Below, in pieces: positions 19,644 to 52,469 of a stretch of 52,979 bases of DNA. Position numbers and translations under genes: made by a program. The stretch is taken from sequence record PV660454; one strand, given 5' to 3'. The first letter of the stretch is position 1. Each line of letters begins with the position of its first letter. The notes under the pieces were generated by a model, which ran no database searches, was not told the DNA's origin, and saw only the letters and a program-made list of their open reading frames with translations. This DNA is from Escherichia phage LF82-11.

Positions 19644-19717
19644 TGGTGTTTCCTCGATTCGTTTATTTAAATTGATTATATCCACCAATCAGGGCGCGTG
19701 CTTAGCAATTCGTGCTA

Positions 19718-23507: not shown

Positions 23508-23535
23508 ATAAAGGAGCCTTTCGGCTCCTTTTTTA
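23508..23535. terminator. bidirectional terminator
   Basis: GGAGCC-tttc-GGCTCC with T-runs on both strands; between convergent ssb and tail fibre. Confidence 0.5.
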
Positions 23536-25983
23536 TTTCAGCAATAACGACTCAAGTTTAGCAAGGCGCTCTTCCATTTCCTCCATTCTGTTACCCATGT
23601 AAACCATAGCACAGGCCATATCAGTAAGCATGACGTTTGAATCAAGAGCTAGCGTATCGTCCTTAAATCCAGTCTCGATCTGCCTGGCAACGTACTCCTC
23701 ACCATTCTCGTTGACTCCGATAACATCTTCAAAGATCGGAGCGCCAGGGACTACTTTCACATACTGACTATCAACTTTATTCAAGTCCTGAGCAATCAGA
23801 CCGAATCTCTGTGTGTCAGATCCCTTATACTTGAACATGGTTGGGAGCCACTGCATTACGCGATCATAGCTCTCCTTTCCTTCGGTGTATTTGATATCCC
23901 ACTTAAGATCCCGGTCAGACGTTGGCGCTTTCTGGAATGTATACCCCCCATCCCATCCTCCACCCTGACCCCATGAGATAATATCTGATGATGGTGCATG
24001 GAATTCAAATCCGCGATGGTACGCACCATCACCAAGCATCTTAATTACTGCGCGAGGCCATCCGTTGTTCCCGCTAGAAATCATACCAAGAGAGGTATTC
24101 ATTCGATACCCGCCAGTTGATGTGGTTGCCCCTGAGATCAATGAAGCATATCCGGCATCATTACCCGTTACATCACCAGCAAAGAACGTACTCCCCATGT
24201 AATCATTTGGCTGCGCCCAACCTCCTTGAGTTAACTTACCAAGAAACCCCCTTGGAGAAGATATGTGACCGCCGTATGAGTTTATGAATTTAAACTCCTT
24301 CCAGTCACTTCCTTGGTTGTTCACTCCGATCTTGAAGTGATCAATATCAGTGCCACTACCGCGAACCCCCCCAATCTGCCAGTAACCAGAGTACCAGTTA
24401 CCTTGAACCAGGTTAACCCAACTATTAACAGAGCCATCACCAGCAGCGTTTTGAATCAGGATGTTTTTGTTTCCGCCACTCTGAGTTGAAACAACGATCG
24501 ATTTACCCTGCTTTGCCTCTACGTTTCCGTTTGTTGCAACCAGAGCGCCGCCGCTAATCGTTCCGACGGCTGTCAGCGATGCAACTCCGGTAATGTTCCC
24601 CGCCTCATCAAACTGATAGTAGTTCCCCTTTCCTCCAGCCGTGTTTGCCGTGTGAATCGTTGTCTTTACAACGCCGCCTTGTAGTTCATTGTAAAATCTT
24701 GAGTTTGATTGCAGCGTTGCGCCGTCAGCAGAAAGCCTTTTACTCTCAATCAGCCCCCCACTAGTTGCTGAGCCAAGTGTTGTAGCCTCCACGCCTCCAA
24801 ATCTCACCGCTTGACCCGAGCCGATACCAAGATTGTTTCTTGCTCCGTCAGCAGTTGTTGATCCAGTGCCACCAGATCCGATAGGGATCGGGATTACATT
24901 TCCGTTACTATCCTGCCACTGGAAAATCCCATCATCGCCAATCGTCAGCCTTTTTGTTCTATCTGGCGTGCTAATGTAGTTACGCGTTCCAATGTGGCGC
25001 AGCCAGTCAAGATCAAGGTTCGTCCTCGCGGCTTGTACGTCAGTAAGATCAGATAGGTTATTTGCCTTCTTTAGCTGTTCGTCAGGGTTAGCCGTTGCTG
25101 CGCGGTCTGCTTCAGCCTTGGCTCGTGCTGCATCGTCACGAGCGGCGGCGGCAGATTGCCCGGCGCTGGTTTCGCTGTTTGCTGCATTCGTCTCGCTTAC
25201 CCTGGCGGCATCCTTGCTGGCTCCGGCTTGGGTTGCGGCAACTTCGGCGGCTTGACGATGCGCGGCAGCTTCGCCGTTAGATTGAGCGGCTGAGCTTGCG
25301 CTATTACCCGCATTTGTCTCGCTAGTCTTCGCATTGAATGCAGAATCGGCGGCAGCGTTCTTTGCGCTTGTTGCGGTTGCAGCGTCAGCGGCGGAGCTAG
25401 ATGCAGATGCGGCAGCGGCGTTTTTATCTTGCTGTGCAGACTGAGCAGATCCGGCGGCGGAGGTCGCAGCAGCCTCAGCGGCAACGCGTTGCTGATAAGC
25501 TTGCTGGTTCTGGCTTCCGGCCTCGCTTGCACTTTGTGCGGCGGCGTTCTTGCTTGCCTCAGCTTCGTTTGCGTTAACTTCAGTACGATCAGCATCAACG
25601 CGAACGGCAGACTGAAGATCTTTCAGCTCTTGCAGGTTAAAGTTCTTGAAGAAATCCATAGCCTCCTCGATCACAGTTTCCTTGCTTTGGTAGTAGCGCA
25701 GAGTTTCAGCCACATCTTGAGCAAGGCCATCAACAGTGATTGAGTCATGCAGCAGGATTACATAGTTCGTACCATCCGGCACAACTGCATCATCCGTTTG
25801 GATCGCTCGCATTTCCGTGTCACTCACGATCGCGGAAATAGTAACCAGCGTTAGTGGTTGAGTTAAAAACACCATCGTTGCCCCAACGCGAATCAGAGAC
25901 AGCTTGTCTTGCCATTTCGTATCAACGCCAGTTACAACGCCGTTAGCGGCCAATCCCGCCGTTCCTCTACGATAAATCGCCAT
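23533..25983 (-). CDS. tail fibre with C-terminal intramolecular chaperone (peptidase S74-like) domain
   Basis: long Ala/Ser-rich low-complexity stretch; C-terminal region typical of autoproteolytic chaperone domain; start at ATG 25983 with AGAGGTG RBS (track start GTG 25992). Confidence 0.65.
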   Translation of the reverse strand: MAIYRRGTAGLAANGVVTGVDTKWQDKLSLIRVGATMVFLTQPLTLVTISAIVSDTEMRAIQTDDAVVPDGTNYVILLHDSITVDGLAQDVAETLRYYQSKETVIEEAMDFFKNFNLQELKDLQSAVRVDADRTEVNANEAEASKNAAAQSASEAGSQNQQAYQQRVAAEAAATSAAGSAQSAQQDKNAAAASASSSAADAATATSAKNAAADSAFNAKTSETNAGNSASSAAQSNGEAAAHRQAAEVAATQAGASKDAARVSETNAANSETSAGQSAAAARDDAARAKAEADRAATANPDEQLKKANNLSDLTDVQAARTNLDLDWLRHIGTRNYISTPDRTKRLTIGDDGIFQWQDSNGNVIPIPIGSGGTGSTTADGARNNLGIGSGQAVRFGGVEATTLGSATSGGLIESKRLSADGATLQSNSRFYNELQGGVVKTTIHTANTAGGKGNYYQFDEAGNITGVASLTAVGTISGGALVATNGNVEAKQGKSIVVSTQSGGNKNILIQNAAGDGSVNSWVNLVQGNWYSGYWQIGGVRGSGTDIDHFKIGVNNQGSDWKEFKFINSYGGHISSPRGFLGKLTQGGWAQPNDYMGSTFFAGDVTGNDAGYASLISGATTSTGGYRMNTSLGMISSGNNGWPRAVIKMLGDGAYHRGFEFHAPSSDIISWGQGGGWDGGYTFQKAPTSDRDLKWDIKYTEGKESYDRVMQWLPTMFKYKGSDTQRFGLIAQDLNKVDSQYVKVVPGAPIFEDVIGVNENGEEYVARQIETGFKDDTLALDSNVMLTDMACAMVYMGNRMEEMEERLAKLESLLLK

Positions 25984-27073: not shown

Positions 27074-27532
27074 TCATTGATTAGCTTTTCGTGCTTTCAG
27101 TGTTTTCCAGGATGGTTGCTCCGGCTTGGTTTCTAACTCTTCCTTTCTCACCACGCGCAGCATGTGACGCTTTTTGCATCGGACTGTTAGCGGCTTGCCG
27201 TTGCCGTCGAATGACAGATCAGGGCGGCACCACGACGCGCGGAAACCTCCGCCATTTCGTTTATATGCGTTGTGCGCCAGTTGCGCGCCTCGCGCTGAAA
27301 TCATGCCGCGTTGCCGCCACTCATAAACAACCTGAAGCGAAACGCGCAATTCTTTCGCCAGCTTTGCAGGTGAGCCGTAGAATTCAAGGATGGTATCTAA
27401 TCTAGCCTTAAGCCCGGCCTTTACTTCGTCTCGTAAAACATAGTAACCTACTGGACGTTTTCGGCGCTTAGCGTCACTTCCGCGCTTCGTTCCATTGTTC
27501 CCATTAAGCGTGCGTTTATCTACGGTTTCCAT
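27074..27532 (-). CDS. basic HTH-type DNA-binding protein
   Basis: LAKELRVSLQVVYEWRQRG resembles a Cro/YdaS-like helix-turn-helix; Arg/Lys-rich. Confidence 0.35.
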   Translation of the reverse strand: METVDKRTLNGNNGTKRGSDAKRRKRPVGYYVLRDEVKAGLKARLDTILEFYGSPAKLAKELRVSLQVVYEWRQRGMISARGAQLAHNAYKRNGGGFRASWCRPDLSFDGNGKPLTVRCKKRHMLRVVRKEELETKPEQPSWKTLKARKANQ

Positions 27533-27624: not shown

Positions 27625-29694
27625 ATGAAAATCAAGAGCATCAAGAAGCAGATTGAGGAGTTAGGCGAGGATAAGATCGCAGAGCTTCAAAAGAAATTCA
27701 CTTTTGGTGACATTGTTCCTTATGCGTATCAGTGCGTCATGTACGACGAGATCGCAAAGCGCATTTCCGCATACAAACACCCATTCTTTGTTAAGGCTTC
27801 CGTGTCGGCTGGCAAAACAGTTGGGTTTGCCATGGTGGCGGCGCGGTGCAGGGAAATGACTAGCGCAAAGTTTCCAAAGGGTTTATCAATGGCAATCCTC
27901 GCTCGCCAGGGTGAGATCGTATCTCAGGATAGCCAGGAGCTAACAAACTTCGGCGTGCCGAATAGCGTTTACTGCGCCGGGCTTGGTACTAAATCTGCAT
28001 ACTTCCCGATCGTCGTTGGCTCTGAGGGTTCAGTTGCAAACGGGCTTTTCAAGGCTCTCGGAGACTTCGCGCCAATGGTTGTCGGCATCGACGAATGTCA
28101 CCAGGTGGATTGGGAAGACCTTGCAGACTCGATCGAGAAGAACGAAAGCTATGAGGAAATGAGCAGACCAAAGGATGAGGCTTACATGATCAATGGCGAA
28201 GTAGTCGATCGCGGGTTGAAGATATCAAGCCTCATGGAAACCCTGGGAACAGTTGCACCAGGTGCCGGGCGCTCTCAGTACACGATAATCATTCGTGAGT
28301 TGCAGCGTCGATGCCTGGAAGTTCACGGAAAGGAACTACGCATATTCGGCATGACTGGTTCAGAGTTTCGCGGCACAACTCCGATCCTTGTTGAGAATAT
28401 GAAACTCAAAGGCTTCTGGCGCGAGCAGGTAACGAACATTGATACGAACTACCTCATTGAGTTTGGCTCGGTTGTTCCAACCGTCTTCGGCTCAACTGGC
28501 GGGTTAGGCTACGATCTGGAAGAGTTCAAAGCGTCAAGCGAAGATGGAACAAAAGACTTTGACGCGAAAGTAATGAAGAAGATGGAGGAGAAGATCCACA
28601 AGGATGCTTCCATGACGGCAAGAATTATGGCGGCGGTTGTGGAGGAAGCGAAGAAGCGAAACGGCGTTCTAATTACTTGCTCAGGGCAACGACACTGTAA
28701 AGAGGCGGCTAGTTACCTGCCTGAAGGCTCAACGTATGCGATCATTACTGAGAAGACCGGAACGAAACAGCGCCAGCAAATCCTTGATGATGCAAACCAG
28801 GGAAAGATAAAGTACATCTTCCAGGTTGTGGCATTGACGACTGGCGTTAACGTGCCGTTTTGGGATTTCTCCGTGATACTCCGTAAGATTGGCTCTCTCA
28901 CATTGCTGATACAGTTGCTTGGGCGCGGAATGCGACTTTTAAAGGCGTGGCAAATCGCAATGGGGATGGTGAAGACAGATCACCTTGTTTGGGATTTTGC
29001 CGGAACTATGGACGAATTAGGCCAACTTTACTTTGACCCGATTCTTGAGGAAGCTCAGTATCAACGCCGTTTCGACTCGAAGAAGGAGCCTAAAAAATGC
29101 CCTATTTGCGGTCATGAAAACAGTTTCTTTGCTCGTCGCTGTATCAGTCGGGATTTGAACGGAAACAGATGTGAGTATTTCTGGAAGTCGAGAACGTGCG
29201 AGGATCAGGTTGACGATCGAACCGGGAAAGTTATTGTGAAGGGTTGCGGTGTTCAAAATGATGTTGTAGCTCGAATCTGTAGGGGTTGTGATGCTAGCCT
29301 AACAGATCCCAACGCCAACTTAACCGGGAAGGCGTACACAAAAAACGACTGGTGCCAGGTTCTCAGCTTTGAGGTTGGGCTTACCAAAAACCAGACCGGG
29401 ATCATTTATAAATATCGCTTGCGTGATATGCTCGGAGAGGAGTTTAACGCATACGAGAAGTTTTTCCCTGAGTCTCAGGCTCAGGTATGCCACACGATAT
29501 GGAAAACAAAAGGCGTGCTTCCACACGTTCACGATTCGAAAGTGGCAAAGCTTATGGCAGCATACAGGAGCGCGCGCCTGATCTTACAAAACGCGCACCA
29601 CATCGCGCACCCGGTACGGGTTACGCATCGCAAAAACGCAAAGGGCGAAGATATCATTTCGCGCAAGGACTTCGGTCTTAATGAGGGCTTATGA
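27625..29694 (+). CDS. SF2 DNA helicase (DEAH-like) with C-terminal zinc-ribbon region
   Basis: Walker A SAGKT, motif II DECH, C-terminal Cys clusters. Confidence 0.7.
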   Translation: MKIKSIKKQIEELGEDKIAELQKKFTFGDIVPYAYQCVMYDEIAKRISAYKHPFFVKASVSAGKTVGFAMVAARCREMTSAKFPKGLSMAILARQGEIVSQDSQELTNFGVPNSVYCAGLGTKSAYFPIVVGSEGSVANGLFKALGDFAPMVVGIDECHQVDWEDLADSIEKNESYEEMSRPKDEAYMINGEVVDRGLKISSLMETLGTVAPGAGRSQYTIIIRELQRRCLEVHGKELRIFGMTGSEFRGTTPILVENMKLKGFWREQVTNIDTNYLIEFGSVVPTVFGSTGGLGYDLEEFKASSEDGTKDFDAKVMKKMEEKIHKDASMTARIMAAVVEEAKKRNGVLITCSGQRHCKEAASYLPEGSTYAIITEKTGTKQRQQILDDANQGKIKYIFQVVALTTGVNVPFWDFSVILRKIGSLTLLIQLLGRGMRLLKAWQIAMGMVKTDHLVWDFAGTMDELGQLYFDPILEEAQYQRRFDSKKEPKKCPICGHENSFFARRCISRDLNGNRCEYFWKSRTCEDQVDDRTGKVIVKGCGVQNDVVARICRGCDASLTDPNANLTGKAYTKNDWCQVLSFEVGLTKNQTGIIYKYRLRDMLGEEFNAYEKFFPESQAQVCHTIWKTKGVLPHVHDSKVAKLMAAYRSARLILQNAHHIAHPVRVTHRKNAKGEDIISRKDFGLNEGL

Positions 29695-30110
29695 TTACTG
29701 ACAAGGGCGATTATCTTGAATATTACACCCCTGATAAGGGGTGTACCCTGAAGGAAGAGACTCACCAGGTTAACGGCGTTTCGTGGCTAAAGTACCACTA
29801 CCCAAACCTGATGTTTTGGCACACGGTCAACGAGGGGCAGAAGCACATAAACACAGCCCTAAAAGATGAGCAAGCCGGGCTTAAGAAAGGTGTCAGCGAC
29901 TTCGTATTTCTGATTGGTCATTTCGATCGGAAATATTGCTTTGGGGCTATTGAGCTGAAGCGCACCAACAAGAGCGGAAAGTACAAGGCATCACCAGTCA
30001 GTAAGGAGCAGAAAGCTTTCCTTCTCGGTGTGCGTGAACGTGGGGGGTTCGCGGCTGTGGCTTACGGATTCGAGGAGTTGAAGAAAGCCGTTGAGGACAT
30101 GATGAAATAG
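29691..30110 (+). CDS. VRR-NUC family nuclease
   Basis: 139 aa with D...ELK PD-(D/E)xK core; ATGA-coupled to helicase. Confidence 0.55.
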   Translation: MITDKGDYLEYYTPDKGCTLKEETHQVNGVSWLKYHYPNLMFWHTVNEGQKHINTALKDEQAGLKKGVSDFVFLIGHFDRKYCFGAIELKRTNKSGKYKASPVSKEQKAFLLGVRERGGFAAVAYGFEELKKAVEDMMK

Positions 30111-30150
30111 CACTATTTGCTAAACCTGTGCCGGAACAATCCGGCATAAT
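30108..30150 (+). promoter_or_regulatory. box-promoter module
   Basis: TAGCACTATTTGCTA, 22 bp with TGCCGG/CCGGCA hairpin, CATAAT. Confidence 0.5.
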
Positions 30151-30180: not shown

Positions 30181-30894
30181 ATGATTGACGAGAACGATAA
30201 AGACACAATGACGTTTGAAGAAATGGAGCACGGCTTGTATTCAACTCGCGCACTGGTTGCCGGGTGCCACTACCAGCCAGTGAAGCCGGAAACGTACTAT
30301 CGCGTTTCAGGGCATCGTTACGTTGGCAGCAAAACGCCTGACGTTGTGCGTGACTTGTGGGCAACCGATCGCGAATTGATTTCGTGGATGGAAGAGCGTT
30401 ACGGAAAGTATGATATCGACGCAGCGGCAAGCGCGAATAATGCCGTGTGCGAAAAGTTCTACGACGAGCAACGTAACTGCCTGAAAATCTGGTGGGGAAA
30501 GAATAAGCACATCTGGCTTAACCCTCCGTACTCACATCCTGATCCATTCGTGAAGAAGGCCATTGAGCAGATGGAGCATGACAACCAGATTGATATGCTT
30601 CTTCCTGGCGACAACTCAACGGCATGGTTTGCAGAGGCGCGCAAAAACGCTGCTGAGATCATCTGGATTGAGGCTGAGATCACAGAGATTGACCAGCAGG
30701 AATATTGCCGAACCGGGCGACTCGCTTTTATTTCCGGCCTAACCGGAAAGCCAGTTGACGGCAACAACAAAGGGAGTGTGATTTTCATCATGCGCAAACT
30801 GAAAGAGGGTGAGACGCAACAAACACACTATGTGAGCGTTTCTGAGATCTGCCCAGGCGTAAGCCGCAAGAAACCACGTAAACGGAGCGTTTAA
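30181..30894 (+). CDS. dam: DNA N6-adenine methyltransferase (phage Dam family)
   Basis: 237 aa with NPPY motif (LNPPYS), as in T1-type Dam. Confidence 0.7.
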   Translation: MIDENDKDTMTFEEMEHGLYSTRALVAGCHYQPVKPETYYRVSGHRYVGSKTPDVVRDLWATDRELISWMEERYGKYDIDAAASANNAVCEKFYDEQRNCLKIWWGKNKHIWLNPPYSHPDPFVKKAIEQMEHDNQIDMLLPGDNSTAWFAEARKNAAEIIWIEAEITEIDQQEYCRTGRLAFISGLTGKPVDGNNKGSVIFIMRKLKEGETQQTHYVSVSEICPGVSRKKPRKRSV

Positions 30895-31894: not shown

Positions 31895-31977
31895 TGCGCT
31901 GTTTAATTCCTGTATTATTACCGCCGATTATCGGTTTTATTATTATCTATCAACTAATTATGAGTTAAGGATTTGTT

Positions 31978-33114
31978 ATGTCACTGAAGAAAATCACCGA
32001 CGAGCAGTTAAACGCCGAGCGAGAGTCGGGTAAAACTTACCGCCAGATCGCGGAAGAGTACGGAATGAACATACGCACCGTCGAGGCTCGCGGCGCACGC
32101 CTGGCTAAGAAAGGTTTCGGTCACGGTAACGGCGATGCATCGCGATTTGTTCCAGAAGGCTTCATGGTTAAGGGCACATCAACCATGCACCGCGCGAACG
32201 GAGAGGTTATCGTTAGCTGGACGAAAACCAATCAGGATCATGAGAAGTTAGCCGCCATGCTTGAGCACGCGATCGAGGCGTTTTGCGTTGAGCTTCCACG
32301 CGCAGCCGCTACACCTTCCAACGTTGGTGAGGTGATGGAGAACCAGCTCGCGCTTTATCCTGTATTCGATCTGCATATCGGTGCAATGGCTCATAAGCAT
32401 GAGTGCGGCGAGAACTACTCAACCGATATTGCCGAGAAGGTTTTGGGCGATTTCTTCAAGTACGCTGTGAACGTTGCGCCGAAGGCGAAGAAGGCGGTTG
32501 TGCTGGTTGGCGGTGACTACCTCCACTCTGACGGCCTGGACGCTGTAACACCCGCAAGCGGTCACGTTCTGGATCAGGACTCACGTTACGCTAAGCTGGT
32601 TCACGTTGCCATTCGCTCACTCCGTCGCGGCGTTGCGCTTCTGCTTGATAAGCATGAAGAGATTGAGATCCAGATTATCGAAGGCAACCACGATCAGGCG
32701 GGTATGATTTGGCTACGCGCTGCAATGGCGGCATACTTCGAAGATGAGCCGCGCGTCACGGTTGACACATCGCCTATGATCCTTCACCGTACCAAGTGGG
32801 GCAAAACGCTGTTAGGCTACACTCACGGTCACACGATGAAGAAAGCAGAAACCCGCCTCCAGGCGCTGGCTACTGACTTCCGTTCTGAGTTCGGCACGAG
32901 TGAATTCGTTTATACTCACTCAGGGCATTGGCATCACCAGACGCTTACAGAGCACACCTTAGGCATTGACGAGGTTCACGGTCAGTTAGGTGCCAAAGAT
33001 GCGTATGCGGCTCGCGGTGGATGGCGCTCATATCGCCAGGCGGCGGTAATTGTCTATGATAAAGAATTTGGCGAGGTAGGCCGATTCGTTTATCGTCCTC
33101 AGATGAGCAAATAG
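31978..33114 (+). CDS. calcineurin-like metallophosphoesterase with N-terminal HTH
   Basis: DLHIG, GGDYLHSDG and GNHD motifs; N-terminal GKTYRQIAEEYGMNIRTVEARGARL HTH-like segment. Confidence 0.55.
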   Translation: MSLKKITDEQLNAERESGKTYRQIAEEYGMNIRTVEARGARLAKKGFGHGNGDASRFVPEGFMVKGTSTMHRANGEVIVSWTKTNQDHEKLAAMLEHAIEAFCVELPRAAATPSNVGEVMENQLALYPVFDLHIGAMAHKHECGENYSTDIAEKVLGDFFKYAVNVAPKAKKAVVLVGGDYLHSDGLDAVTPASGHVLDQDSRYAKLVHVAIRSLRRGVALLLDKHEEIEIQIIEGNHDQAGMIWLRAAMAAYFEDEPRVTVDTSPMILHRTKWGKTLLGYTHGHTMKKAETRLQALATDFRSEFGTSEFVYTHSGHWHHQTLTEHTLGIDEVHGQLGAKDAYAARGGWRSYRQAAVIVYDKEFGEVGRFVYRPQMSK

Positions 33115-33154
33115 CACTTTTTGTTAAAAGCCGATCGCGTTGGTCGGCTATACT
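33112..33154 (+). promoter_or_regulatory. box-promoter module
   Basis: TAGCACTTTTTGTTA, 22 bp with GCCGA/TCGGC hairpin, TATACT. Confidence 0.5.
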
Positions 33155-33183: not shown

Positions 33184-33288
33184 ATGAAATCTATCTTAAT
33201 CAACGTGGTCTGTTTTGCATTGGGCGCTGGCGTAGTTGCTTCCAGCCTTTGGGTTATCAATCTCGCTTCAGTATTCAAGGGCTTCTAA
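33184..33288 (+). CDS. small hydrophobic membrane peptide
   Basis: 34 aa, GAGGAG RBS, one predicted TM helix; not in ORF track (<60 aa). Confidence 0.3.
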   Translation: MKSILINVVCFALGAGVVASSLWVINLASVFKGF

Positions 33289-37363: not shown

Positions 37364-37406
37364 ATAATAACAAAACCCGCCGAAGCGGGTTTAACAAAAA
37401 GTGCTA
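37364..37406 (-). promoter_or_regulatory. box-promoter module (minus)
   Basis: TAGCACTTTTTGTTA on minus strand, 22 bp, TATTAT; box starts at stop of upstream gene. Confidence 0.5.
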
Positions 37407-38096
37407 TTTGTAACGGTTGTACTGGAAGACGGCGCGAGCGAATCCGCGCGGAGTTAGGGAGCGGAGTTGCTTAGTCTTCGCAGACTTTCCGCCGAGGAAC
37501 TTCCAGCCCCAAAAGAAATGCAAGCCTTCCTCTTTTGGTAATGGTGCCTTCTCTGGCTCGCGGAAACCGTTGCCATGCCAGATGCAAGTTTTTTTCGTGT
37601 AGCCGTCTCGCAGTGGCATTTTGGGGTGCCAGGAGCCTTCACGCGCATCGACGTATTGCCCGAAGTCACGAGGATGGAAATAGAATTTAGGCTTGCCCAG
37701 GTTTTCCGGCTTTGACATTGCCCCTACCGGGTTTTCAATCATCCACGGGATCTGGTAGCGTTCGCCAATCTCAATGACAACCTTTGCACACTCAAGCGCA
37801 TATTTCATTTCGGCGTCGTCTCTCTCGTGCTGCGCGCCAGATTGGGCAAACAGAGTGCAATCCGGGAAGCCAAAAACGATATCAGGCTTGGGCAACCCCA
37901 GGATCTCAGCCTTTGTGATGAAATCCTTATCAATCCACGTATTCACATATCGGATATTTGGGTGATTCATCTTCACGGCGTACTCGCCATGATTGCCGGA
38001 GTCAGCGTTGAAGCATATCACCTGACAACCAACCTCAGCCCAAGGCAATCCCATAATGCCGGAGCCGTCAAACAGCGACCATACAACACGCTTCAT
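37404..38096 (-). CDS. compact C5-cytosine methyltransferase-fold protein
   Basis: FDGSG (motif I-like), GFPDC (IV-like), ENP (VI-like), RSLTPRGFARA (IX/X-like); only 230 aa so little room for a target-recognition domain. Confidence 0.5.
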   Translation of the reverse strand: MKRVVWSLFDGSGIMGLPWAEVGCQVICFNADSGNHGEYAVKMNHPNIRYVNTWIDKDFITKAEILGLPKPDIVFGFPDCTLFAQSGAQHERDDAEMKYALECAKVVIEIGERYQIPWMIENPVGAMSKPENLGKPKFYFHPRDFGQYVDAREGSWHPKMPLRDGYTKKTCIWHGNGFREPEKAPLPKEEGLHFFWGWKFLGGKSAKTKQLRSLTPRGFARAVFQYNRYK

Positions 38097-47786: not shown

Positions 47787-47954
47787 ATGTTCGAAGAAAA
47801 GAAACACAGGCCGGAACAAGCTTACTCAAGGGTATCACGCACCGTTAAAGAGCGTAGGCGCTGGGTTAAGTATTTCATGAATCAAGGCCACACCAGATCG
47901 GTTGCGATTGGCCTGGCTAAGTGGGCAACAAACAACTACAACGGGAAAAACTGA
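47787..47954 (+). CDS. small basic protein
   Basis: 55 aa, RBS AAGGGG; not in ORF track. Confidence 0.25.
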   Translation: MFEEKKHRPEQAYSRVSRTVKERRRWVKYFMNQGHTRSVAIGLAKWATNNYNGKN

Positions 47955-48586
47955 TGAACTTTCAAATGTACACTATGATCAAGCATCACTTACTTACTCA
48001 TCCAGATCAGCCAGTCTACATCTTCGACTATGACGGCACGCTTTCGGATGGCTCTCACCGACTGGACAAGTTGCCAACAAAAGATTTGCACCTCACCGAA
48101 AGCTGGGAAGAGTTCAATCGCCTTGCTTCATTCGATGAGCCGATCGAAACAACCATTCAGGTGATGAATTCACTTTATAAGGCTGGCGCTTTCGTTATCG
48201 TGTTAACCGGGCGCGCCGATAGCGTTGTTGAAGAGTCAACACAATGGCTGCATGATGCTGGGGCGAAATATACAGTGATGGTGATGCGTGGGCGTGACGA
48301 CAATCGCAAGGACACGATCATCAAGGAGGAATTCTTGCGCTACATCGGACTTGAGCGAATTACAGCGGCGTGGGATGATAGCCCAAAAGTGATCGAGCAT
48401 TTCCGATCGCTGGGCATCACAACCTACCAGGTTTGTGATTATGGCGATAAGACTCACGCGCATCTACAGTCACACGGCGTGAAAGATGCTGGCGGAGAGT
48501 GTGAGCATATTTGGGAGCGTCACAGTATTGGTGACGATTATTATGAATGCTGTGTTTCATGCGGCAGATCAAGAGGCATTAAGTAA
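47954..48586 (+). CDS. HAD-superfamily phosphatase with C-terminal Cys cluster
   Basis: IFDYDGTL (DxDGT) HAD motif I; ATGA-coupled; C-terminal C-x-n-C cluster. Confidence 0.5.
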   Translation: MNFQMYTMIKHHLLTHPDQPVYIFDYDGTLSDGSHRLDKLPTKDLHLTESWEEFNRLASFDEPIETTIQVMNSLYKAGAFVIVLTGRADSVVEESTQWLHDAGAKYTVMVMRGRDDNRKDTIIKEEFLRYIGLERITAAWDDSPKVIEHFRSLGITTYQVCDYGDKTHAHLQSHGVKDAGGECEHIWERHSIGDDYYECCVSCGRSRGIK

Positions 48587-49194
48587 TGGCAACTATCATC
48601 ATTCTGAATGCGCCGCCGCGCGCCGGGAAAGACACGATCGCGAAAATCATCGACGAGCAATACGGCTTGCCAGTTGTGAGCTTCAAAACTCCGATGTTCA
48701 ACATTGCTCGCGGCATCTTGGGCGAAGCGGATTTTAAAGAGTTCATGGCGGTTTACGAAACAGACCGCAAGGACACACAGCCGTTAAGTATTCTGCATGG
48801 CAGCACTTGCCGCGAGTTTATGATCTGGATTAGCGAATCCGTGATTAAGCCTCATTTCGGCAAGAAGCATTTCGGCTGGCTTATGGCTGATTTGCTCAGC
48901 GAAATGGAGGATGATGTTGATCTCACAATTTGCAGCGATGGCGGGTTCCCGGATGAGGTAGAGGCGTTGATTGACTTCGGGCACCGTGTCAAGCTGGTTC
49001 GTATGCACCGTGAAGGCTTCGACTTCTCGAAAGATAGCCGTGACTACATCTACCTTTCCGAAGAGTACAAGAGCAAGCCTGGTGTTGTTGAGTTCGATCT
49101 GACATTGCAGGACGGTTGCCCTAATCTGGCTGCTGAGACTATCGCGTCATTGTTCATTGCCCATCATAAACCAGATAACGAGATCCCTTGGTAA
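48586..49194 (+). CDS. P-loop (deoxy)nucleotide kinase-like protein
   Basis: N-terminal LNAPPRAGKDT Walker A resembling phage dNMP kinase P-loops. Confidence 0.45.
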   Translation: MATIIILNAPPRAGKDTIAKIIDEQYGLPVVSFKTPMFNIARGILGEADFKEFMAVYETDRKDTQPLSILHGSTCREFMIWISESVIKPHFGKKHFGWLMADLLSEMEDDVDLTICSDGGFPDEVEALIDFGHRVKLVRMHREGFDFSKDSRDYIYLSEEYKSKPGVVEFDLTLQDGCPNLAAETIASLFIAHHKPDNEIPW

Positions 49195-52381: not shown

Positions 52382-52469
52382 GGAAGGTTGGCAGAGTGGA
52401 CGATCGCGCACGGTTGCTAACCGTCAAGCCGGAAACGGCTCAAGGGTTCGAATCCCTTACCTTCCACCA
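52382..52469 (+). tRNA. tRNA-Ser (anticodon GCU), type II with long variable arm
   Basis: 7-bp acceptor stem GGAAGGT/ACCTTCC, TTGCTAA anticodon loop, GCCG-gaaa-CGGC variable arm, AAGGG-TTCGAAT-CCCTT T-arm, 3' ACCA; D-stem and anticodon stem each carry a mismatch. Confidence 0.6.

Follow-up and report, generated by a model that had tools for sequence, protein, structure and literature searches.

We analysed a gene of Escherichia phage LF82-11 (record PV660454; 52,979 nucleotides, the whole of which we call the window) that encodes a metallophosphoesterase (MPE) preceded by a helix-turn-helix (HTH) domain. The MPE occupies a single open reading frame (ORF) of 378 aa at 31978–33114 on the plus strand, with a Shine-Dalgarno sequence, AAGGA, at 31967–31971 and a 6-nt spacer to the ATG. 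We propose, with a probability that we place at roughly one half, that this protein is a DNA phosphodiesterase or nuclease that tethers itself to DNA and serves phage DNA metabolism, as an analogue of gp47 of Bxb1 and gp48 of A10ZJ24. We favor a DNA nuclease because the nearest folds are those of DP1, Mre11 and SbcD, because homologues are found in DNA-metabolism contexts, and because the MPEs of cluster A phages provide a precedent. The same 378-aa protein, 100% identical, is present in Escherichia phages LF82-10, -12, -19 and -40, and in LF82-12 it is an annotated coding sequence (XUQ13554.1) with the product name ‘DNA repair exonuclease’. This label derives from PHROG 704, whose profile is matched by residues 4–377 of the MPE over positions 2–389 of 390 (E = 4.8e-149).

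The catalytic domain spans residues 120–378 (32335–33111) in the structural model, with no capping domain following it, and carries all five motifs of the superfamily (DxH, GD, GNH[DE], H and GHxH). From the sequence and alignments, these are motif I, D131-L-H133-I-G135 (32368–32382); motif II, G178-G-D180-Y-L-H183-S-D185, which has the GDxxH form (32509–32532); motif III, G236-N-H-D239 (32683–32694); motif IV, H283-G-H285, preceded by T (32824–32832); and motif V, G316-H317-W-H319, within H314-S-G-H317-W-H319-H (32923–32934). The alignments also revealed a conserved loop specific to the family, T191-P-x5-L198-D199-x-D201-x-R203 (32548–32586), which was modelled confidently only from a deep alignment. 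Conservation was scored across 123 representatives of 50%-identity clusters, which are 27–41% identical to the window protein. In this set D131, H133, D180, T191, H283 and H319 are invariant, and G179, H183, D185, L198, D199, D201, R203, G236, N237, H238, D239, R259, G284, G316, H317 and D341 are at least 90% conserved. The calcineurin-like motifs that a preliminary description of this DNA had recognized are thus all present and near-invariant across the family, and because they are invariant or at least 90% conserved they do not reflect chance. The seven metal ligands and two auxiliary histidines are kept throughout the 123 representatives, and judged by these residues the active site is intact and of the binuclear-metal type.

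The same preliminary description had placed about 50 residues resembling a sigma-70 region-4 or resolvase-type HTH in front of the core. The three-helix HTH itself stands and is family-wide, while the extension proved to be about 118 residues long and to comprise the HTH, a linker, and a beta-ribbon with a helix. The HTH covers residues 8–44 (helices 8–16, 21–28 and 32–44; 31999–32109), modelled by AlphaFold2 (AF2) with a predicted local distance difference test (pLDDT) score of 85–96 and recognized by Pfam families. It is followed by a lower-confidence linker at residues 45–61 (32110–32160; pLDDT ~66–69), which in the model is probably a flexible tether, and by residues 62–105 (32161–32292), where model and alignments place a beta-ribbon (62–71 and 77–86) and a helix (88–105); G75 and W81 of this region are at least 90% conserved. 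Since motif I starts at a median residue of 142 in 143 representatives, a long N-terminal region belongs to the architecture of the family.

In the window protein the Pfam HTH matches (Sigma70_r4_2, E = 0.007) fall below the gathering score, and the homologue of Rhizobium phage RHEph19 exceeds that of HTH_30 (28.8 vs 27 bits). A Pfam scan of the 123 representatives matched 49 families, the 25 most frequent of which are all HTH families or Metallophos. The HTH families include HTH_1 (26 representatives), HTH_8 (18), HTH_50 (15), HTH_23 (13) and HTH_28 (11), as well as Sigma70_r4_2 (14; best E = 1.5e-9) and GerE (7; best E = 2.4e-8). At the level of sequence profiles, the HTH is therefore real and family-wide, and is predicted to be a DNA-binding domain. 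It is also the least conserved part of the protein, with a mean identity to the window protein of 23% (residues 5–47) vs 38% for the catalytic domain; in close T1-like relatives, the corresponding identities are 68% vs 76%.

The AF2 model built from the 123-sequence alignment (pLDDT 93.2; predicted template modelling score 0.81) replaced a mediocre first model from 28 sequences (pLDDT 76). It contains an MPE beta-sandwich over residues 120–378 with nothing C-terminal to it. When compared with solved structures, its best match was the PolD subunit DP1, a 3'-5' exonuclease (score 16.1; 213 residues aligned), followed by Mre11 (14.7), SbcD (14.5), the phosphodiesterase MJ0936 (14.1), LpxH (13.3), other Mre11/SbcD entries (13.0–13.4), YfcE (13.0), Rv0805 (12.3), the PdeM ‘nuclease MPE’ (9.4) and protein phosphatases of the PP5 type (9 or less). 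The first model returned the same set of matches, and identities to these fold relatives are just 12–18%. By a modest margin, the folds nearest to the predicted MPE structure are those of nucleases. No NCBIfam family matched the MPE.

We treat the gp47 family of cluster A phages (Bxb1 gp47, L5 gp54 and A10ZJ24 gp48; PHROG 221) as the closest functional analogue of the window MPE, and not as the same family. Like the proteins of PHROG 704, these are stand-alone phage MPEs without a Rad50-like partner. They are encoded among replication genes, and both a DNase or exonuclease activity and a requirement in phage DNA replication have been shown for them. A10ZJ24 gp48, a mycobacteriophage MPE, is expressed early and acts as a phosphodiesterase and as a DNase, the latter on linear, plasmid and genomic DNA; a D10G substitution abolishes its activity, and its deletion blocks phage DNA replication in M. 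tuberculosis (PMC12287305). A family-to-family comparison with hhalign gave a weak match (probability 50%, E = 1.6e-4, 123 columns) that covers the loop after motif II, GNHD, HGH and GHxH. Unlike the window MPE, the cluster A proteins are about 230–255 aa long with motif I at residue ~10, and so have neither an HTH nor a beta-ribbon adaptor. Bxb1 gp47 further differs in doubling as the integrase directionality factor and in having a degenerate first motif (DTQ). The Bxb1 RefSeq record (NC_002656.1, 5876–6788) carries ‘recombination directionality factor’ on gp46 and ‘metallo-phosphoesterase’ on gp47, while the literature assigns both to gp47; the product names look shifted.

Among cellular enzymes, Mre11 and SbcD share with the window MPE the GNHD form of motif III and an auxiliary histidine in motif II, which in Mre11 reads GDLFH, i.e. 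GDxxH. In contrast to the window MPE, which ends with its core, they carry a capping domain after it, and they pair with Rad50 or SbcC where the window MPE has its predicted DNA-binding HTH. The window MPE and SbcD belong to different PHROGs (704 and 100), and hhalign against a shallow SbcD alignment gave a probability of 7% over 17 columns; single-sequence hhalign comparisons with SbcD, NinI and gp47 were uninformative. DP1, the archaeal 3'-5' proofreading exonuclease whose counterparts, the B-subunits of eukaryotic polymerases, are inactive, resembles the window MPE in placing an N-terminal nucleic-acid-binding module before the MPE domain, and BFVD gives related phage proteins the label ‘DNA polymerase II small subunit’. 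However, DP1 uses an oligonucleotide-binding (OB) fold rather than an HTH and beta-ribbon, is bound to the DP2 polymerase, and is 13% identical to the window MPE. PdeM, a small MPE DNA nuclease from the bacterial ligase-associated Lhr-ligase DNA-damage operon, stands alone and is genetically linked to an ATP-dependent ligase; similarly, in phages phiEa1H and MR4 an ATP DNA ligase is encoded three genes away from the HTH-MPE.

We then surveyed the distribution of the family. A tblastn search found the MPE in 2037 of 50,697 phage records, 1947 of them at 80% of its length or more. Carriers include the Drexlerviridae, the Guernseyvirinae (Jerseyvirus and Kagunavirus), Dhillonvirus, two genera of Autographiviridae and N4-like roseophages, together with phages of Rhizobium, Vibrio, Microcystis, Campylobacter and Flavobacterium. 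One of the Campylobacter records, MG065671.1 (‘Campylobacter phage A120’, 47.5 kb), encodes an MPE 59% identical to that of the window, which is within the range of Escherichia and Citrobacter T1-like phages, and the stated host is perhaps doubtful. Searching 1.84 billion cluster representatives with a profile returned 5233 clusters (50% identity) at E ≤ 1e-3 and 1300 at E ≤ 1e-30, and the median length among the 148 best representatives is 392 aa. The family is therefore very large and, as PHROG 704, already catalogued, and the gene is an ordinary one for T1-like phages.

For comparison, the T1-type major capsid protein of the window was found in 1347 phage records, against the 2037 with the MPE. 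Counts for the capsid protein and the MPE are close for Klebsiella (461 vs 468), Vibrio (252 vs 254) and Shigella (36 vs 42), and the surplus of MPE records in Escherichia and Salmonella comes from phages of the Jersey-, Kagunavirus and Dhillonvirus types. Near-equal counts where only T1-type phages contribute argue for a gene of the core and against an accessory one that serves counter-defence. From these per-host counts, as distinct from a genome-by-genome table, we infer that the MPE is a vertically inherited core gene of T1-like phages.

To place the gene in its wider genomic context, we retrieved 286 IMG/VR loci with six different queries and called their ORFs. The MPE was located in 287 loci (those from IMG/VR and GenBank plus the window), and 283 MPEs fell into 56 lineages at 70% identity; the six genes on each side were clustered using one representative per lineage, and 146 neighbors, about half, were scanned with Pfam. 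Among the scanned neighbors, those of DNA metabolism are SSB, Sak, endonuclease VII, Dam and HNH proteins, and those of nucleotide metabolism are DUF7768, DUF6378, DUF3310, dGTP diphosphohydrolase, dCMP deaminase and HAD_PNKP; lysis genes and some tail genes also occur. The commonest neighbor family, the T1-like phage endolysin, is found in 8 of the 56 lineages only. At position +1, 4 of the 56 have a PNKP-type HAD phosphatase, and 5 have a P-loop kinase, mostly at +2. We found no Rad50/SbcC gene among the 92 annotated genes of the phage or among the neighbors in the 56 lineages, about half of which were Pfam-scanned.

The most informative contexts are those of the T7-like phages (Autographiviridae) phiEa1H and MR4, because gene order follows function in T7-like phages. 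There the order is 5'-3' exonuclease, endonuclease VII, HTH-MPE, HAD phosphatase, P-loop kinase and ATP DNA ligase, followed by structural genes. In the Kagunavirus K1H, the end of the MPE gene overlaps the start of that for a HAD_PNKP phosphatase, which in turn overlaps that for a P-loop kinase, and the three are translationally coupled. In an N4-like roseophage the MPE lies amid ThyX, MazG-like and dCMP-deaminase genes, and a metagenomic homologue is located after a MazG gene. The window has such a pair of its own, a PNKP-type HAD phosphatase at 47954–48586 (plus strand; HAD_PNKP, E = 4.3e-17) and then a P-loop kinase at 48586–49194 (plus strand), which the deposited record and a PHROG-based annotation both name a dNMP kinase. 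The pair is immediately 3' of the HTH-MPE in K1H, phiEa1H and MR4, and 15 kb away from it in the window.

Taken together, these data make a DNA nuclease with the Mre11/SbcD/PolD-DP1 class of fold, acting as an exo- and/or endonuclease, the most likely reading. In this model the HTH, and possibly the beta-ribbon as well, would hold the enzyme on DNA and so substitute for Rad50/SbcC or DP2, and the MPE domain would cut phosphodiester bonds at ends or in distorted DNA. Its role could lie in handling replication or recombination intermediates and DNA ends, and/or in a breakdown of host DNA that feeds the dNMP kinase and nucleotide salvage. Several results weigh against this proposal. The window protein matches the Pfam family Metallophos (PF00149) with E = 0.029 and 15.2 bits, below the gathering score of 21.5, and 27 of the 123 representatives match it at E up to 0.01; by sequence, the MPE belongs to a very divergent branch of the calcineurin-like metallophosphoesterases. 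PDB searches with the single sequence or a 28-sequence profile gave no match for the catalytic domain and weak matches for the HTH only. The tie to the gp47 family is weak, the two belong to different PHROGs (704 vs 221), and the window MPE did not match PHROG 221 at E up to 0.01. Several of the additional well-conserved residues are acidic (E142, D185, D199, D201 and D341), which is unexpected for a surface that binds the DNA backbone. The neighborhood is variable, with no gene family beside the MPE in more than 8 of the 56 lineages, and our literature search found no paper on the PHROG 704 MPE family.

We also examined the signals that flank the gene, which the preliminary description had credited with a terminator hairpin of its own upstream and a box module at its end. 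The upstream hairpin proved weak: a 5-bp stem (31923–31935) with a T-rich tail (to 31945, plus strand) folds at −5 kcal/mol (z = −0.97), and 31 of 200 shuffled sequences fold equally well, so that it is a weak terminator at best. The 3' module, on the other hand, is real. A 44-nt promoter-like box, ATAGCACTTT-TTGTTA-N22-TATACT (33111–33154, plus strand), spans the MPE stop codon, and its spacer forms an 8-bp hairpin (33129–33149; −12.8 kcal/mol, z = −3.2). With the full 34-nt box as query, searches for exact copies or with 3 mismatches allowed matched only the box itself, while a search with a variable spacer found 12 copies in the window, on both strands, with the consensus ATAGCAC-nnn-TTG[CT]TA-N22-[CT]ATA[ACG]T. 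Their TTGYTA hexamers are at 19708, 39081, 39956 and 41663 on the minus strand and at 30117, 33121, 43837, 44506, 45853, 46940, 49982 and 50996 on the plus strand.

The boxes we examined sit just 5' of gene starts, such as that at 30117 before dam and that at 33121 before a small ORF at 33184. Their 22-nt spacing exceeds that of a standard sigma-70 promoter. Because five of the spacers hold GC-rich hairpins (−10.3 to −13.2 kcal/mol), the sequence suggests that the box could be a combined terminator and promoter element. In T1-like relatives, a ‘TTGATAAAAA-hairpin-TATAGT’ arrangement likewise directly follows the MPE stop codon. The MPE has no box of its own, and since the nearest upstream box on the same strand is that at 30117 before dam, it is probably co-transcribed with dam from a unit that starts there. 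One could imagine that the HTH directs the MPE to these phage repeats (the 12-copy ATAGCAC-TTGYTA-N22-TATAAT boxes), making it a site-directed nuclease or processing factor. We hold this to be highly doubtful; if it were so, DNA cleavage would be coupled to the boundaries of transcription units or to replication start sites, and a Rad50-independent, sequence-targeted Mre11-like enzyme would be a core requirement of T1-type phages.

Other activities of the MPE fold have to be weighed against a tethered DNA nuclease. The HAD_PNKP phosphatase and P-loop kinase that follow the MPE in K1H, joined by a DNA ligase in phiEa1H and MR4, and the window's own HAD_PNKP and kinase pair at 47954–49194 could point to an end-healing enzyme: a 2',3'-cyclic phosphodiesterase, a 3'-phosphatase or an end-cleaning nuclease that works with a PNKP-type phosphatase, kinase and ligase. 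Such an enzyme would repair broken DNA or RNA, for example after attack by host nucleases, and would have analogues in bacterial Pnkp and PdeM. This seems unlikely to us, as the adjacency is seen in just 4–5 of the 56 MPE lineages and the window's pair is distant from the gene, as the kinase is labelled a dNMP kinase and so fits nucleotide salvage instead, and as the ligase, an ATP DNA ligase of the T7 type, is present in T7-like phages in any case. The preliminary description had offered a DNA-targeted nuclease or phosphatase and, alternatively, a hydrolase of signalling nucleotides acting against host immunity. Of these, the DNA-targeted nuclease is the best supported, while the anti-immune idea fared poorly against the core-gene distribution. 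A counter-defence hydrolase of cyclic oligonucleotides, cyclic pyrimidines or other second messengers could make use of the conserved acidic loops near the active site, which might suit a small-molecule pocket. However, the gene is distributed like a core gene that tracks the capsid gene and is positioned in DNA-metabolism blocks instead of accessory islands, no similarity to defence-related proteins was found with PADLOC or otherwise, and a substrate in solution gives an enzyme little need for a conserved, predicted DNA-binding HTH. Acb1 and Apyc1, the known anti-signalling nucleases of phages, have 2H or metallo-beta-lactamase folds, both unlike that of the MPE. Overall, we judge an anti-signalling role to be quite improbable.

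The HTH and the position of the gene could instead suggest a DNA-binding regulator, with the HTH acting on control sites (the boxes or an early/late junction) and the MPE domain serving as a sensor or accessory activity. The HTH matches include sigma-70 region 4, LuxR/GerE and LysR types, the gene is often at module junctions beside lysis or terminase genes (as in the window, welsh and RHEph19), and its stop codon lies within one of the 12 promoter-like boxes. Set against this, strong purifying selection acts on the full catalytic machinery, whereas the HTH varies most (mean identity 23% vs 38%); members of the family also occur in T7-like phages, which rely on an RNA polymerase and promoters of their own; and the window encodes a separate transcriptional regulator at 27074–27532. 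We therefore find a regulatory role very unlikely. A Ser/Thr/Tyr protein phosphatase that acts on host or phage proteins, in the manner of lambda NinI, is barely credible, despite the name ‘serine/threonine protein phosphatase’ given to some database homologues and despite a similar map position: the lambda enzyme, also a phage MPE, is encoded just upstream of Q, a short way ahead of the lysis genes. The phosphoprotein phosphatase (PPP) signatures GDxHG, GDxVDRG and GNHE are absent from the window protein, which has DLHIG, GGDYLHSD and GNHD instead. Moreover, NinI belongs to PHROG 246, which shows no cross-match to PHROG 704, and single-sequence hhalign with NinI gave a probability of 0.6%.

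The window is the genome of a T1-like siphovirus (Drexlerviridae group) with 92 annotated genes, among which there is no DNA polymerase. Terminase, head and tail genes occupy its first 19.3 kb and are followed by a RecE-like exonuclease, Erf and SSB. After SSB come a tail fibre gene, primase, the regulator mentioned above, a SNF2-like helicase, a VRR-NUC nuclease, Dam, four small ORFs and the MPE; downstream of the MPE are two small ORFs, holin, endolysin and spanin. Beyond these lysis genes lie an early block that reads leftward and includes a second helicase and a methylase and, further on, a rightward block of small genes that includes the PNKP-type phosphatase and the P-loop kinase.

Some genes of the window merit separate mention. 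Two that were deposited as ‘hypothetical protein’ can be named: 27625–29694 (plus strand) encodes the SNF2/ResIII-type helicase (Helicase_C, E = 1e-10), and 29691–30110 (plus strand), which overlaps it, encodes the VRR-NUC nuclease (E = 5e-9). By its sequence class, the latter could likewise take part in the processing of DNA or the breakdown of host DNA in this phage. There are two DNA methyltransferase genes on opposite strands, one of the Dam type at 30181–30894 (plus) and one at 37404–38096 (minus), and the Dam-type gene is the first of the apparent transcription unit to which the MPE belongs. The tail fibre gene at 23533–25983 (minus strand) stands alone among recombination and replication genes, flanked by SSB and primase and apart from the main tail block. 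The deposited annotation places a tRNA-Ser at 52382–52469 (plus strand), close to where the rightward block of small genes ends.

The pipeline name ‘DNA repair exonuclease’ has no experiment behind it that we could find in the literature. A search for work on classical T1 genetics (gene 2.5 and host DNA degradation) yielded nothing usable for the MPE, and a preprint on m6-dAMP sensing proved to concern a host calcineurin-CE effector and T2 denA, not the MPE gene. Of practical value is a better-founded annotation: a nuclease-class MPE with an HTH and an adaptor, which is neither a protein phosphatase nor a known anti-signalling enzyme. The gene is carried by T1-like phages (Drexlerviridae) and by several other large phage groups that are used in therapy and as models. 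If the protein is indeed a self-tethered Mre11-like nuclease on which replication or the breakdown of host DNA depends, it would explain how DNA ends are processed in phages that lack a polymerase or Rad50 homologue of their own, and would account for the origin of the nucleotides sensed by some defence systems.

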